A stretch of DNA of 64,000 nucleotides, taken from contig OY821645.1 in NCBI GenBank assembly GCA_963682135.1, positions 1,248,001 to 1,312,000 on the forward strand. Reading direction: 5' to 3'. The notes under the pieces were generated by a model. It was given only the letters and a program-made list of their open reading frames with translations. It did not search any database and was not told the origin of the DNA. Below, piece after piece: positions 35,209 through 41,589 of this stretch (position 1 is the first letter of the stretch; each line of letters begins with the position of its first letter). The position numbers and the translations under genes are program-made. This DNA is from Methanothrix sp. GTDB taxonomy: Archaea > Halobacteriota > Methanosarcinia > Methanotrichales > Methanotrichaceae.

Positions 35209-37251
35209 TCATGCTTTCAAGAACCTCCGGACATGTCCGAAGGGACTGTACTCCACTCCACCGCCATGATTGCTGTAGAACTTCGTGAACATCTCCACAT
35301 AATGCAACCTGAGAGGATGCATGAAGGGAGAGAGAATTCCCAGCAGGAAGTTGATGAAGTGAACTGCCAATAATACCACAAGACCCGCAATGATCGCAGG
35401 TATTGTGAACTCAGCGCTATCAGTTGCTCCACCACTCAGCATGGGCATGACTACATAGAAGGCCAACTGGTTGGCAGCGAATGCCAAGCCTACTGAAGCA
35501 AGGCCAATAGCTAATAACCTGAGATAGGATATCAGATTGCTCACATAGAATGGCAAGTGAGCAAGACCCATAGGCCCTTCCGGTCCCATTACCAGCATCA
35601 CCATGGCGACTAAAATTACGACAGCACTTGCGATTACCAACATCATCTGACCTATGACGAGTCCAAGTACAAGCAACCCAAAGAATACTTGGATGAGCAT
35701 CACAGGAAGTTTCTCGAAATAAGCATGCTTCTTCTCGCCGTAGGCAAGCTCCGTCTTGATACCCAAGATAGAACCGACGCTGCAGTGAATAATGCCTATG
35801 ATGACACTAGTACCGATCAACAACAAAACAGCGTTGCTTGCCAGCCGGTCCATGGGGAAAATATCAATTCCCGGCCAAAATCCGATCCTTCCCAGCGAGC
35901 CAAAAACACCTTCACCGAAATAGAGACCTGCCGCCTTTACAGCCTCGAGCTCATGTTCAGGCAATTGTCCCATGACCTTGCCCCACAAACCGAGCGGGCC
36001 AAAGATCTCGCCGAAGAATATACCGAATATGATAGCCCACACGCTGGAAATCAGAACTACGTTGATCAGCTGCTGCCAGCCAGGAGTCTTGAACTTCTTC
36101 TTGAGAAGCACCATAGTCAGAAGCGACATGACGCCATAGCCGATATCACCCAGAATCATGCCAAACATGATTGGGAAGAATACGAATATCAGCAATGACG
36201 GATCGAACTCCTTATACTCGGGAATGGCGAACATCCTTGTTACCAGTTCGTAAGGCTTGACCAAGCTGGGATTATCCATCAGGGTCGGTATGTCTTCGCC
36301 CTTCTCTGCAAGTTCGTCTGTCTCTTTATCTGCGATCAACGAAACTTCAAGCCTGCCGCCGGCAGCACTCTCCAACTCGCTCTTGAGCCTGCTGAACTGA
36401 TCTGCTGGAACATACCCATCTATAACGAAGGCGTTATCCGTCTCAGCAAACCTGAGTGGTGCCTCTGTTTTGCGGGTCTCCATGGACAGGTACTCGTCCG
36501 TCGCCAGCATAAGATCTTCATACTGCTTCTTCATGTCGGACAGCTTCTTTTGGAGTGGCACTTTTTCGCCTTCCAGAGATTTAACGCTGCCTTCAAGAGT
36601 AGCAATAGCCGAGTCTACATTGCCCTCCAGCCTGGGTACAGACAATTCAGAAAACCCATGCTCAGAAAGGACTGAAGATACTTCGCCGGCCTTTTCTGCA
36701 GGCACAAATACCGCTACAAAAGTTGCATTCTTGGCACTTCCGGAATAAACCTCATTTACCGGAGATACCTTCGCTACATCGGCATCTACTGGAGTTTTTG
36801 TTGTGCCGACGAAGGTCGCCAGAGAATCATAACCATAATAAGCATCTAAAGGCAAAGGCAACACTGCCAATGGAGTCAGAGACTTGATCTGATCCTGTTT
36901 GGATTTTACTTCTGCGTCGATGGCAACGATGCGCTCGTATGTAGCAGTAACATCTGCACCGACGTTATTGAGAAGATTATCCAGCTCCGATAGAACCTGG
37001 CTCTCGGGATATGCCTTATCAGGAAACTTCTTATTTAATTCAAGATACCTGGTGACAGATCTGAGCTTAATGAGATCCTCGGAGTATTCTTTGGCTTTGC
37101 CGATGGGCTTGCCCATCTCAAACTGAGGTTGGTTGCCATTATAGTTGACAATATGGAGCAAGCGCAACTCATGCAGCTTTTCTACGACTGGAGATATTAC
37201 GTTCTTTGACCCGGCGACTACTACACGACTCATTTTCACGGGTCTAAGCAT
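35209..37251 (-). CDS. atpI: A1Ao ATP synthase subunit I (a)
   Basis: FGMILGDIGYG, SYLRLLA (essential Arg), LRLHYVEMFTKFY. Confidence 0.96.
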   Translation of the reverse strand: MLRPVKMSRVVVAGSKNVISPVVEKLHELRLLHIVNYNGNQPQFEMGKPIGKAKEYSEDLIKLRSVTRYLELNKKFPDKAYPESQVLSELDNLLNNVGADVTATYERIVAIDAEVKSKQDQIKSLTPLAVLPLPLDAYYGYDSLATFVGTTKTPVDADVAKVSPVNEVYSGSAKNATFVAVFVPAEKAGEVSSVLSEHGFSELSVPRLEGNVDSAIATLEGSVKSLEGEKVPLQKKLSDMKKQYEDLMLATDEYLSMETRKTEAPLRFAETDNAFVIDGYVPADQFSRLKSELESAAGGRLEVSLIADKETDELAEKGEDIPTLMDNPSLVKPYELVTRMFAIPEYKEFDPSLLIFVFFPIMFGMILGDIGYGVMSLLTMVLLKKKFKTPGWQQLINVVLISSVWAIIFGIFFGEIFGPLGLWGKVMGQLPEHELEAVKAAGLYFGEGVFGSLGRIGFWPGIDIFPMDRLASNAVLLLIGTSVIIGIIHCSVGSILGIKTELAYGEKKHAYFEKLPVMLIQVFFGLLVLGLVIGQMMLVIASAVVILVAMVMLVMGPEGPMGLAHLPFYVSNLISYLRLLAIGLASVGLAFAANQLAFYVVMPMLSGGATDSAEFTIPAIIAGLVVLLAVHFINFLLGILSPFMHPLRLHYVEMFTKFYSNHGGGVEYSPFGHVRRFLKA

Positions 37252-37570
37252 GTAACAACCCCATAAACTCCTTTATCAAATATTCAACAGCTTTGTCCAG
37301 CTTTGCGTTGGCGCTGCCGCTCATTGAGTTTACGTTCTTCTCACCGCTGCTAACGATCGATGCCTTCTTGACTTTCACATCGCTCTCAGCTTTGGCAACG
37401 CTCTTGTTATAGTAATCCTGTGCATCAGTCTCGGCGGATTTGACGAGGTTTGCAGCTTCAGTAGTGGCAGCGGCTATCCTTTTTCCCTTTTCATCCAAGG
37501 CTCGCTGGACTGCTGCCTTGGCTTCAGCCTCTGCCGATTTAATTTTCGATAAGATATCGTCTCTAGCCAT
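37244..37570 (-). CDS. atpH: A1Ao ATP synthase subunit H
   Basis: Small Ala/Lys/Glu-rich coiled coil (ILSKIKSAEAEA); first gene of the HIKECFABD operon. Confidence 0.88.
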   Translation of the reverse strand: MARDDILSKIKSAEAEAKAAVQRALDEKGKRIAAATTEAANLVKSAETDAQDYYNKSVAKAESDVKVKKASIVSSGEKNVNSMSGSANAKLDKAVEYLIKEFMGLLHA

Positions 37571-37726: not shown

Positions 37727-38890
37727 TTATGATCCCCAAAATTTCAAGGCTGTTTCCAGCTCTTTGTGGTCTTTTGCGTATTCTTTTAAGGGAATTTGCA
37801 TTCTCCAGGCCTCCGCCGCCTGCACCATAGCTCTTGCACCGGCCACAGTTCCGTCAGGATGGCCGTGCACCCCTCCACCTGCTTGGACGATGCAATCAAT
37901 GCCGTAGCCATCGAGGTTTCCATGAACTTTAGCAGGATAGACCCCGCCCGAGGCAACCGGGAAGACTCTCTTGTAGCCGTGCCAATCCTCTCGCAGAGCA
38001 TCACGGGAGAAGTCGTTTTCCAGGGTTTCGCGCGCCATCTTGCCCATGTAGCTTCCAGTATGCAAGTTAGTGCCGCCCGTCATGCGCACCAGCTTGGAGA
38101 TGACCAGCATGGAAATGCCATGTCCTTTATCACGAGTGAAGGCTGCATGCATCGTTCTGTGTACGTGTATGGGGACACTAAGGTGAGTTGAGAGAATCTC
38201 CAGAGCAGAAAAGCCGCTCGTCAGGACATCTATCATGACCATATTGGCGCCATGATCAACTGCCTGCTCCGCACGCTCCAGGATTTTATCTGGGCCGACG
38301 GTGACATTCACCGCATAGAAAGCTTTCTTGCCCGTCTGCGTCTCCACCTTGTCGAGAGCCGCCATGACCGCCTCAAGGCGGGGGATGAGCGGGCAGAAGC
38401 TCTGATCAGTCAGAGTCTCATCATCCTTGACCAGATCCAGCCCACCGCGAACGGCTGCTGCCGCCACCTCTGCTGTACCGGACGGGTCCAGACCGACCTT
38501 GGGCTTGACGATGGTGCCAATCAATGGACGGTCGTAAACTCCTAATATTTTTCGCGCATCTTCAATGCCAAAGCGAGGACCCTTATGCGCACAGAGCAGG
38601 CTCTCCGGGAAGATTACATCCTGCAGGCGCACCTTCTTCAAGTCGCCCAGACCGAAGAGATTTCCTGCCACCACAGAAAGGTACTGGGGGATGTTTCCCG
38701 GCTCAAATAGCTCCTCGGGAAAGCCTATCTCCACATTGTTGCCCTCCGCCAGGATCACCCTGGCCGCGAGAGAGTTGTCCTGGCCGCGCACCGCGGTCCA
38801 GGTGCCGGTGGACTGCTCGGCTGCAATAGCCTCCGCCGCCCTCCGGATGGGAAGGTCTGTTTCTACATGATATTTTGCAATAAGTTCCAT
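37727..38890 (-). CDS. rbcL: RuBisCO large subunit, archaeal form III-type
   Basis: Catalytic-residue motifs present: [45 protein letters not shown]. Start taken at ATG 38890 with an AGGAG Shine-Dalgarno site. Confidence 0.9.
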
Positions 38891-38917
38891 ATTACAGCTC
38901 CTGGGTGTTCTACGAAA

Positions 38918-38988
38918 GGCCAGACGGGCACCTCTGCCCTGGGATGACTGAAATCCCTCCTCAGAACAATATTGAGGCATAATTGGCC
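38918..38988 (-). ncRNA. Candidate cis-regulatory four-way-junction RNA in the rbcL 5' leader
   Basis: Four perfect 5-bp helices: GGCCA/UGGCC closes CCUCA/UGAGG, GGGAU/AUCCC and GGGCA/UGCCC. It lies between a TATA-like box (39016-39023) and the Shine-Dalgarno site. Confidence 0.5.
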
Positions 38989-39235
38989 GATTCCGGTCAT
39001 AGATGATCTCTGACAGATATAAGATCTACGCAGCCGGGCAAGACTTTTGGCGGACGCCTCCCTTCCGCAAAATTAGTGGCATGGGCACTATTCGCTGGGC
39101 GAACGGAATATTTCTCTTTGGAAAAAATCCTGCAAACCGCAATTAGAAGATAAAAACAAATTATTTCGGTGCGGGGGGTAACAGTTTTATTATCGAAGAA
39201 ACCCTTTCAGACTGCTAAAAATATCAGGTGAATAT

Positions 39236-40174
39236 ATGGGTGAATGCATAAATGATGAAACTCGATATATCGTCGATCTGAGGCGCCACATGTGGATGGA
39301 TGGCATCGAGGTGGAATTGCGACGGCTCATCTGGCAGATTGCCGTTGTCGGGAAATACATTTCTGCAAAGATCCACGAATCCAACCGCAAGCTGGCCGGC
39401 TTCAAGAATGTTTATGACGAGGATCAGTTGGCACTGGACCGCATTTCCGACGACATATTGAAAAATATGCTGCACAACTCCGGATTTGTTCGCGAGTATG
39501 CCTCCGAGGAGCTCGAAGATATCGTAACCATCGGTCAGGGGGGGGAAAAATATATTGTTACCGCCGATCCAGTGGATGGTTCGTCTCTGGTGGATACTAA
39601 TCTGGCCATCGGAACGATCATCGGCATCCATAAAAATTCGATATTTGACAACGGCCACAATTCAATGGTCGCCGCTCTTTATATTACCTACGGCCCGCTC
39701 ATCACCATGATTTATTCGGCCGGAAAGGGCGTGCATGAGTTTGTATTGGATCGCGAAGGAGAGTATGTCCTGTCCGAGGAAAATATCCGGCTCAATGAGA
39801 AGGGGTCGATCTTTTCACCTGGTGGTCTGCGCAAGGACTGGACGGACAAACATCAGAATTACATCAATAAGCTGGAGGCAGACGGCTACAAGTTGCGCTA
39901 CAGCGGAGGTTTTGTTCCCGACATCAATCAGGTGATCATCAAGCGGGGAGGCGTATTCACGTATCCCGCACTGAAAAAATCTCCCCAGGGGAAGCTTCGC
40001 TTGCTGTTTGAACTTCAGCCTATGGCTTTCATTGTAGAGCAGGCCGGCGGCAGAGCAACGGACGGGAAAAATGATATTCTTTCCATTAAAGTGACATCCG
40101 TTAAACAACGGTCACCCATATACATTGGTTCGACCGCGGAAGTGACAATGGCGGGGGAATTTCTGTCGCAATAA
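39236..40174 (+). CDS. fbp: Fructose-1,6-bisphosphatase class I
   Basis: ASEE, DPVDGSS, LRYSGGFVPD, GKLRLLFE motifs. Confidence 0.93.
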   Translation: MGECINDETRYIVDLRRHMWMDGIEVELRRLIWQIAVVGKYISAKIHESNRKLAGFKNVYDEDQLALDRISDDILKNMLHNSGFVREYASEELEDIVTIGQGGEKYIVTADPVDGSSLVDTNLAIGTIIGIHKNSIFDNGHNSMVAALYITYGPLITMIYSAGKGVHEFVLDREGEYVLSEENIRLNEKGSIFSPGGLRKDWTDKHQNYINKLEADGYKLRYSGGFVPDINQVIIKRGGVFTYPALKKSPQGKLRLLFELQPMAFIVEQAGGRATDGKNDILSIKVTSVKQRSPIYIGSTAEVTMAGEFLSQ

Positions 40175-40194
40175 ATTCATTCAATGGGGCAGCA

Positions 40195-41589
40195 ATGATT
40201 TACGAGAATTATGATCTGCTAAAAAAAGGATGCGAATCAATACTCGCCTATGACGATGGTGATGTTCGTGTCTTGGATGAAGCCAGGTTTCAGGAAAAGC
40301 TGATCGATGATTTAATCTATACAGTCGTTTTCAGTCCCGACCCTGCGACTTCGGAAGCGGCGGGGTTTCTGATTCGCCGGAGTGCTGCAACGCTCGGGAT
40401 TATGTCTGCGTCGATCCAATCCCTTTACGAAGCAATTGGAAGGAAAGAGATCGGCGGATTTACTGTTCCGGCGATCAATATCCGCGGCATTACCTACCAT
40501 GTGGCGCAGGCAGTATTTCGTGCTGCAATAAAAGGGAATGTGGGACCTGTTCTTTTTGAGATAGCCCGTTCGGAAATAGGCTACACAAAACAAAAGCCGC
40601 TGGAATACACCTGTGCCGTGATGGCGGCGGCGATTAAATCCGGCTGGCGTGGCCCGATCTTTTTGCAGGGCGATCATTTTCAGATAAACGCCAAGAAGTT
40701 TGCAGCGGACGCAAAAAAGGAAACGCAGACCGTTAAGGATCTGATCCGGGAAGCTATCCAATCCGGTTTTTACAATATCGACATCGATACTTCCACACTG
40801 GTTGATCTGTCGCAGCCCACAGTCAAAGATCAGCAAAGAACGAACTTCACACTTGCTGCAGAGCTGACCGCTCTGATTCGTGATCTGGAGCCGGAAGGCA
40901 TCACTGTGTCCGTGGGTGGCGAAATCGGCGAGGTTGGCGGCAAGAACAGCACAGTCGATGAGCTGATGATTTTCATGGACGGTTATCTGGAAGAACTCAA
41001 GAAACGGGGCGAGGCTTTCAAAGGAATCAGCAAGATCAGCGTCCAAACCGGTACGACTCATGGGGGTGTGCCGCTTGCCGACGGAACGGTTGCAAAAGTC
41101 AAAATTGATTTTGACGTGTTAGAGAAACTTTCAGAGACATCCCGCGAGCAATACGGTTTGTCCGGAGCCGTTCAGCACGGCGCTTCAACGCTTCCCGATG
41201 AAGCATTTGATCGCTTTCCTGCCACCGCAACCGCAGAGATTCATCTGGCTACAGGCTTTCAGAACATGATCTATGACAACAAAGCTTTCCCGGCGGATCT
41301 GCGATCAAATATTTATGATCTTCTGTTAGCCGACATGAAAGGCGAATGGAAAGAAAAGGACACGCAGGAGCAGTTCATCTATAAAACCCGCAAAAAAGCC
41401 TTCGGACCGTTCAAGCGAGAACTGTGGCACCTGCCATCAGTTGTCCGCACCGAAATCTGCACTGAGCTGGAAAGGAAATTCGCCTTTTTATTTGACAAGC
41501 TCAAAGTAAACGGCACACGTCCTGTTCTGGATCAATTCATCAGGCGGGTTGATGTGCCGCAGAAAATGCCCGATGCGCTGAAAGGCTGA
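40195..41589 (+). CDS. fba: Class II fructose-bisphosphate aldolase (long form)
   Basis: VPAINIR, QGDH, GEIGEVG, GTTHGG, VQHGAS Zn-ligand motifs. Confidence 0.88.
   Translation: MIYENYDLLKKGCESILAYDDGDVRVLDEARFQEKLIDDLIYTVVFSPDPATSEAAGFLIRRSAATLGIMSASIQSLYEAIGRKEIGGFTVPAINIRGITYHVAQAVFRAAIKGNVGPVLFEIARSEIGYTKQKPLEYTCAVMAAAIKSGWRGPIFLQGDHFQINAKKFAADAKKETQTVKDLIREAIQSGFYNIDIDTSTLVDLSQPTVKDQQRTNFTLAAELTALIRDLEPEGITVSVGGEIGEVGGKNSTVDELMIFMDGYLEELKKRGEAFKGISKISVQTGTTHGGVPLADGTVAKVKIDFDVLEKLSETSREQYGLSGAVQHGASTLPDEAFDRFPATATAEIHLATGFQNMIYDNKAFPADLRSNIYDLLLADMKGEWKEKDTQEQFIYKTRKKAFGPFKRELWHLPSVVRTEICTELERKFAFLFDKLKVNGTRPVLDQFIRRVDVPQKMPDALKG

Follow-up and report, generated by a model that had tools for sequence, protein, structure and literature searches.

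The rbcL locus and its upstream region

The window, that is, the whole stretch of 64,000 nucleotides of the Methanothrix sp. contig OY821645.1 that was analysed, harbors on its minus strand a RuBisCO large-subunit gene, rbcL, together with the promoter, leader and ribosome-binding site that precede it. The features of this locus are as follows.

39016..39023, minus strand: TATA box CTTATATC of the rbcL promoter, read in the sequence
38991..38995, minus strand: predicted transcription start, at about 38993, placed by promoter geometry and by the TATA-to-ATG spacing of leaderless relatives
38891..38993, minus strand: predicted 5' untranslated leader of about 103 nt, with homologues in 30 of 63 distinct rbcL upstream regions
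38903..38917, minus strand: conserved pre-SD box, UUUCGUAGAACACCC here and GAGAAUAGACAUC in most relatives, conserved in alignments A3 and A6
38898..38902, minus strand: Shine-Dalgarno (SD) sequence AGGAG, 7 nt 5' of the ATG at 38890
37727..38890, minus strand: rbcL, type III-like RuBisCO large subunit of 387 aa, by TIGR03326 and Pfam

The rbcL product matches both Pfam RuBisCO_large and RuBisCO_large_N, and it scores 386.6 bits against TIGR03326, which is below the cut-off of 497.45; its best PDB matches include 2cwx and 1geh, which we take to be archaeal type III enzymes. The motifs KDDE, HRTMHA and GGGxHGHP can be recognized by eye in the translation and suggest that the protein is a true carboxylase. 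The enzyme is unusually short, at 387 aa versus 430-444 for the solved type III enzymes, in which the alignment begins near residues 25-37. Parts of the coding region are covered by metatranscriptome contigs from two runs in Logan.

Divergent from rbcL, at 39236-41589 on the plus strand, are located the genes of a class I fructose-1,6-bisphosphatase of 312 aa (Pfam FBPase and FBPase_C) and of a 464-aa class II aldolase-like protein (F_bP_aldolase, with a weak GatZ/KbaZ match), and a sugar-phosphate gene pair thus adjoins the RuBisCO gene. Directly 3' of rbcL and on the same strand (35209-37570, minus) are A/V-type ATPase genes, which encode a subunit I-like protein of 680 aa and a V-ATPase_G-like protein of 108 aa, both with Pfam scores just under the cut-offs.

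The preliminary description of this DNA had located a TATA-like element at 39023-39016 and an AGGAG about 16 nt 3' of the structure; both are found there, the AGGAG at 38902-38898, and the ATG lies at 38890. Read along the minus strand, the region comprises CTTATATC, about 23 nt, GGCCA, three 5-bp hairpins, UGGCC, 15 nt, AGGAG, 7 nt and ATG. Most of the Methanothrix regions examined 5' of rbcL keep the promoter motif (AAGTY)CTTATATC, and many of those that keep it carry no such leader. Archaeal TATA boxes are centred near -26/-27, and in the leaderless-type relatives L004 and L052 the ATG follows 24-27 nt past the promoter, from which we infer that transcription would start at about 38993, 5 nt before GGCCA. 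The SD sequence reads AGGAG in 28 of the 30 homologous leaders, the exceptions being L002 (AGGTG) and L107 (ATTAG).

The rbcL frame stays open for 30 codons 5' of the ATG at 38890, up to an ATG at 38980 within the structured region (38891-38980, minus strand), which yields an ORF of 417 aa. This is a trap for start-codon annotation across the RNA element, as the Logan gene call adopts 417 aa and NCBI/ENA 387 aa. The RuBisCO profile match begins at residue 31 of the longer ORF; the ATG at 38890 and its SD sequence are conserved among relatives, in contrast to the two ATGs further upstream, at 39000 and 38980. An upstream ORF or an N-terminal extension was ruled out by the start of the profile match, the non-conserved ATGs and the 387-aa form of NCBI/ENA, the same three observations on the strength of which the leader element is regarded as non-coding; no conserved upstream ORF was seen in the homologous leaders.

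Predicted fold of the leader in this genome

The 71 nt at 38918-38988 (minus strand) had been drawn in the preliminary description as a four-way junction of four perfect 5-bp helices with single-A linkers, and each of these helices is present as drawn. In the list below, P1 to P4 are the helices of that drawing, while P2' and P3' belong to the rod, an unbranched fold that is predicted for most relatives.

38984..38988, minus strand: 5' arm of the closing helix P1, GGCCA; P1 occurs in the minimum-free-energy (MFE) structure of 28 of 30 orthologues
38974..38978, minus strand: C/U-rich block GCCUC, at the 5' arm of P2 (38973-38977) here; in relatives it serves as 5' arm of the rod helix P2'
38959..38963, minus strand: 3' arm of P2, UGAGG, which pairs in this genome
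38941..38957, minus strand: P3 hairpin GGGAU-UUCAGUC-AUCCC, at the apex position in the four-way model and in the relatives' rod
38926..38939, minus strand: P4 hairpin GGGCA-GAGG-UGCCC, refolded in the rod
38918..38922, minus strand: 3' arm of P1, UGGCC, with the same evidence as the 5' arm

RNAfold returns exactly this four-way junction as the MFE structure of the isolated 71 nt, at -26.9 kcal/mol and with 39% of the ensemble. Measured against dinucleotide shuffles, the 71-nt fold has a z-score of -1.89, with 10 of 200 shuffles as good (-2.04 and 7 of 200 in a second run). When the context is extended to 151 nt, the MFE structure is a different fold, with a z-score of -0.74, and 44 of 200 shuffles reach its stability. 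Of 18,266 stretches of 71 nt sampled across the 64-kb window, 394 equal or exceed the element in stability, and 54 of those 394 adopt a closed fold of at least three branches (next best, -24.9). The four-way fold is therefore only marginally better than chance.

The rod can also be formed by the sequence of this genome. When forced, it reaches -25.1 kcal/mol, 1.8 more than the four-way junction, and the pair probabilities amount to about 0.12 for the rod and about 0.88 for the junction. The forced rod leaves the closing helix unchanged and has a shorter apical hairpin; the 5' arm of P4 pairs with 38962-38968 to form P3', and the P4 loop together with the first base of its 3' arm (38930-38934) pairs with GCCUC to form P2'. 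A third fold, designated alt-2, is the MFE structure (-35.5 kcal/mol) of the predicted whole transcript with tail and start codon; in it the 5' half of the leader pairs with the pre-SD box, the SD sequence and the AUG, and the SD sequence is left with an unpaired probability of 0.35. An upstream GACCGG had been proposed to compete with the closing helix, and such a pairing does exist as a CCG/CGG hairpin of only 3 bp, the site of which lies upstream of the predicted transcription start.

The element matches no described RNA family. An Rfam 15 cmscan of 38000-40000 at E<=10 returned three chance matches, none of them on the element; the preliminary description had recognised no known family either. 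The absence of tRNA features had been remarked as well, and a tRNA or tmRNA identity was rejected, since ARAGORN detects no gene in the 64 kb and no Rfam tRNA or tmRNA model matches.

Distribution, copy number and loss of the leader

A protein search recovered rbcL orthologues from 19 of the 24 congeneric genomes searched. When the leader was used as a DNA query against 59 genomes of the genus, 39 gave a match, 23 of them over nearly the full length and 16 over the SD sequence and gene start only. Every matching genome has a single locus, the two places reported for G071 being parts of one deleted locus, and neither BLAST nor two covariance models detected a second copy in the present genome. 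A miniature mobile element of the MITE type was rejected on the grounds of this single locus per matching genome and of the single copy found here by covariance model. All 30 leader-bearing upstream regions belong to Methanothrix/Methanotrichaceae.

Metagenomes were scanned with the promoter pattern, which gave 99 matching stretches; 80 of these were returned as loci and searched with covariance model R1. Nine full-length and two partial matches were obtained, one of the latter being the deletion variant L132. Four of the nine are identical to leaders already known, and the other five, though new, are near-identical to known ones (94-98% similarity); the comparison gained no power from them.

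The distribution within the genus is patchy. Besides L004 and L052, two further relatives (L006 and L051) have the promoter about 36-55 nt before the ATG, which implies leaderless or very short-leader rbcL mRNAs in all four, close kin of leader-bearing species. Others carry unrelated leaders of up to about 170 nt behind the same promoter. Two independent internal deletions (L044:1290-1334 and L132:4604-4650, the latter on a metagenome contig) keep the first 20-30 nt or so and the SD region, and remove most of the element including the 3' arm of P1. The leader types are scattered among each other on a quick tree of rbcL proteins, where the label of having no leader needs 11 changes, at least four of which are forced by well-supported branches. 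With about half of the Methanothrix rbcL genes having an unrelated leader, a deleted one or none, the leader is evidently dispensable; because close relatives have lost or exchanged it and still keep both promoter and gene, it would be useful rather than essential.

The fold across orthologous leaders

When each of the 30 orthologues was folded alone, one four-way junction, that of this genome, two three-way junctions and 27 unbranched rods were obtained; even the leader of L024, the closest relative, with 91% identity in the element, is a rod. In a MAFFT alignment made without regard to structure, all 20 pairs of the junction are present here, versus 7-17 of them in the other 25 leaders. Orthologous leaders thus do not conserve the pairing of three of the four helices, and the closing helix alone is kept. 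The C/U-rich block illustrates the difference, as it pairs with a distal G-rich segment beside the 3' arm of P1 in 29 of the 30 MFE structures and with the nearby UGAGG only here. On an alignment fitted to the four-way model, the outer pair of P2 is unpaired in 19 of 26 sequences and the homologous cells of P3 are only 46% paired, the relatives having a different, shorter apical hairpin. As read from the printed sequences, P4 cannot form in L014 and retains 3 bp in L013. In these models the four-way junction is a coincidence of one genome, a nearly isoenergetic alternative conformer of the rod, and the element otherwise resembles an ordinary structured leader.

All rods share the closing helix GGCCA/UGGCY. 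P1 is paired in 97.7% of cells across 27 aligned sequences, mostly by invariance: its GC/CG pairs never vary, and the first pair is GU in 16 sequences, GC in 5 and AU in 4. Since P1 is mainly invariant, its conservation does not by itself prove the pairing. The arms of the distal helix differ between leader types (GCCUC/GAGGC, GACUC/GAGUC, AACUC/GGGUU, UCCUU/AAGGA and GCCCC/GGGGC), and their complementarity is kept. A chimera test gave -13.5 kcal/mol for cognate inner 5' and 3' halves versus -10.6 for cross-type combinations, the cognate being better in six of only seven leader types, which are not independent of each other. The evidence for the inner helices of the rod comprises this test and the per-sequence energy minimisation. 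By eye on the folds, no consistent pattern of a 3-nt bulge with G.A pairs, as in a K-turn or tandem G.A motif, was seen in the internal loop.

The MFE z-scores of 26 orthologues average -1.46 and range from +0.74 to -4.29. Column-wise statistics support P1 only: RNAalifold retains this helix alone, without a compensatory pair. On alignments fitted by covariance model, 79.4% of cells are paired for the rod versus 72.4% for the four-way junction, and neither shows covariation above shuffles (rod score 0.159, with 98 of 500 as high; junction, 119 of 500). Such tests fail because the inner helices sit in different registers in the different leader types.

Possible pairing with the Shine-Dalgarno region

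It was considered that the leader might be a bistable translational switch, specific to Methanothrix, in which the 5' half either closes the rod (here, the four-way junction) and leaves the SD sequence free or pairs as alt-2 and masks both the SD sequence and the AUG, the balance of the two functional states being set by temperature, a protein or a small-molecule ligand that would tune RuBisCO translation. That alt-2 is the MFE structure of the whole transcript is consistent with such a switch. Its pairs are 81.7% formed on a structure-blind alignment of 30 leaders, although the structure was itself derived from the majority type. Its double-change cells number 11, a count reached by 9 of 500 shuffles, and its covariation is 0.179 (reached by 20 of 500), but shuffle counts of 9-20 in 500 also arise in unconstrained related sequences. 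Compensatory changes are seen in L077 (GAUAUC/GAUAUC) and L047 (GAUGCC/GGCGUC); if the switch were true, selection on both states would lie behind these changes and behind the strong conservation of the sequence.

Other observations speak against it. The duplex z-score lies at about -1.5 to -2.4 in many leaders of types A, B and B2, yet the mean is -0.6 and no signal was detected in types C, D, E and F, four of the seven types. In nine sequences the central pair has undergone a U-to-C change without a compensating one, and the register of alt-2 in this genome differs from that of its nearest relative. The mean unpaired probability of the SD sequence is 0.467 in 29 real leaders versus 0.469 with the element shuffled, so that no masking signal is discernible. 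Taken together, these findings leave the switch an unlikely explanation, if one with some positive evidence on its side. A separate anti-SD pairing of UCCUGAUG with CAUCAGGA was also tried; it is confined to a few type B leaders (L002, L005, L055 and L077), mismatched in the others, and was rejected as a general feature.

Probable selection on the leader

Within leader types the identity of the element is 0.88, and from one type to another it is 0.64; the corresponding values at four-fold sites of rbcL are 0.56 and 0.49, near saturation. Between this genome and L024 the element is 0.91 identical and the four-fold sites 0.54, while 5' of the promoter the DNA can hardly be aligned at all, with 280 gap columns to 60 aligned positions. 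Conservation being thus localised, the leader is probably under purifying selection and functional. The synonymous sites of rbcL and the leader type disagree in their grouping (L001 versus L003/L005 and L024/L014/L013), and the coding sequence of this genome resembles that of type B genomes (0.65-0.68) more than that of genomes with the same leader type, A (0.43-0.54). Such a mismatch hints that leader and coding region have recombined, and a possible recombination of leader alleles would weaken the selection argument somewhat.

Selection of this kind might act on the DNA, through operator sites for a transcription factor 3' of the start site, with the RNA fold being incidental. In favour of this, the sequence is strongly conserved with little covariation, the most conserved part is the promoter-proximal block CTGCCAGAGA..CATCTATG with the first 17 or so transcribed bases, and type B leaders contain a palindrome, ATTGGCCAAT, at about +4 to +13. 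That palindrome, however, is absent from the other leader types; the 5' arm has its complement, in nearly all cells, in the conserved 3' arm CUGGCY some 60 nt further on; and in the chimera test the 5' half co-varies with the 3' half from type to type. The promoter-proximal pattern has one exact site in the genome, at rbcL, and three sites with two mismatches versus two for the reversed control; since the promoter-plus-operator pattern occurs once, no regulon is visible. An action at the level of DNA is accordingly rated as improbable, and the leader would more readily act as RNA.

The possibility was likewise weighed that the leader has no function and that a chance fold sits in a drifting sequence on its way to being lost. 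The marginal z-scores, the comparable folds elsewhere in the window and the repeated deletion and replacement in relatives are what such a view would predict. Drift, however, would have erased the element, because the four-fold sites and the flanks diverged while the element was kept, and the absence of any function is therefore held to be quite improbable.

A metabolite-sensing riboswitch, with the four-way junction as the aptamer that controls RuBisCO expression, finds support in the MFE structure of the isolated 71 nt, in the purifying selection and in a position between promoter and SD sequence outside any known family, but it is very hard to reconcile with a junction seen in one of 30 orthologues, with helices P2-P4 that are 46-75% paired on their own fitted alignment and lack covariation, with a single copy that occurs in only part of one genus and has been lost several times from genomes that keep the gene, with the missing SD-masking signal and with listings of the full-text literature in which no paper linking a riboswitch to archaeal RuBisCO was found.

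Proposed role and comparison with known systems

The explanation that we prefer, at about even chances, is that of a lineage-restricted, selectively maintained and structured 5' leader on the type III RuBisCO mRNA of some Methanothrix species, one that adopts a rod and may serve in mRNA stability or the binding of a factor. The rod is predicted to be an extended imperfect hairpin of about 60-74 nt, starting some 5 nt inside the predicted 5' end and followed by the pre-SD box and the SD sequence. The leader would act post-transcriptionally, as a 5'-proximal stem-loop and/or as the binding site of a trans-acting factor, and might thereby set the stability or the translation rate of the rbcL mRNA; the binding of a metabolite has no part in this proposed mechanism. 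A stabilising or factor-binding leader is favoured because SD masking is unsupported, the element is single-copy and the promoter-proximal motif is unique in the genome. Of the earlier reading as an undescribed cis-regulatory RNA, a non-coding element under probable purifying selection, set between promoter and SD sequence and outside the known families, is retained, while the four-way junction and the riboswitch are abandoned.

The listings of the full-text literature returned no report of a leader or riboswitch of archaeal RuBisCO, and the element is regarded as undescribed. To our knowledge, the cis-regulatory RNAs of archaea are few, and we know of nothing on the post-transcriptional control of archaeal RuBisCO. 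Methanothrix is a globally important methane producer, and its conserved leader would offer a small but concrete entry point to RuBisCO control in archaea.

Among known systems, leaders that turn expression on or off by an alternative anti-SD pairing include the RNA thermometers and the expression platform of the add adenine riboswitch. The Methanothrix leader resembles them in that its 5' half can pair either within the element or with the pre-SD box and SD sequence; it differs in a predicted SD accessibility equal to that of shuffled controls and in an alternative pairing that is missing from more than half of the leader types.

Four-way junctions are known from the SAM-I and cobalamin riboswitch aptamers and from the tRNA cloverleaf. 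Here too, though in this genome alone, the 71 nt of a 5' leader can close into a junction of four helices that is comparable in size. Unlike those RNAs, the Methanothrix leader has no match in Rfam or by ARAGORN, does not keep the junction across orthologues, is devoid of conserved junction and loop nucleotides of the aptamer type, and is single-copy and narrowly distributed.

The leader may further be compared with the stabilising stem-loops at the 5' termini of mRNAs, as in the E. coli ompA leader and the 5' UTR of chloroplast rbcL. In those cases, as is predicted here, a stable hairpin lies a few nucleotides from the 5' end, apart from and 5' of the ribosome-binding site, and is conserved but non-essential to the gene, and the chloroplast stem-loop even concerns the same gene product. 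There is no homology, the archaeal decay machinery differs, and, in comparison with a minimal protective hairpin, the Methanothrix leader is much longer and is conserved in its sequence beyond the pairing alone.

The natural deletion and replacement variants of the leader constitute a ready-made comparison set. In L083, L087 and L090, all of the Methanotrichaceae, a different leader of about 100 nt, composed of repetitive AAUAGCAAUAAUGGCGGUAA-like units, stands behind the same promoter.
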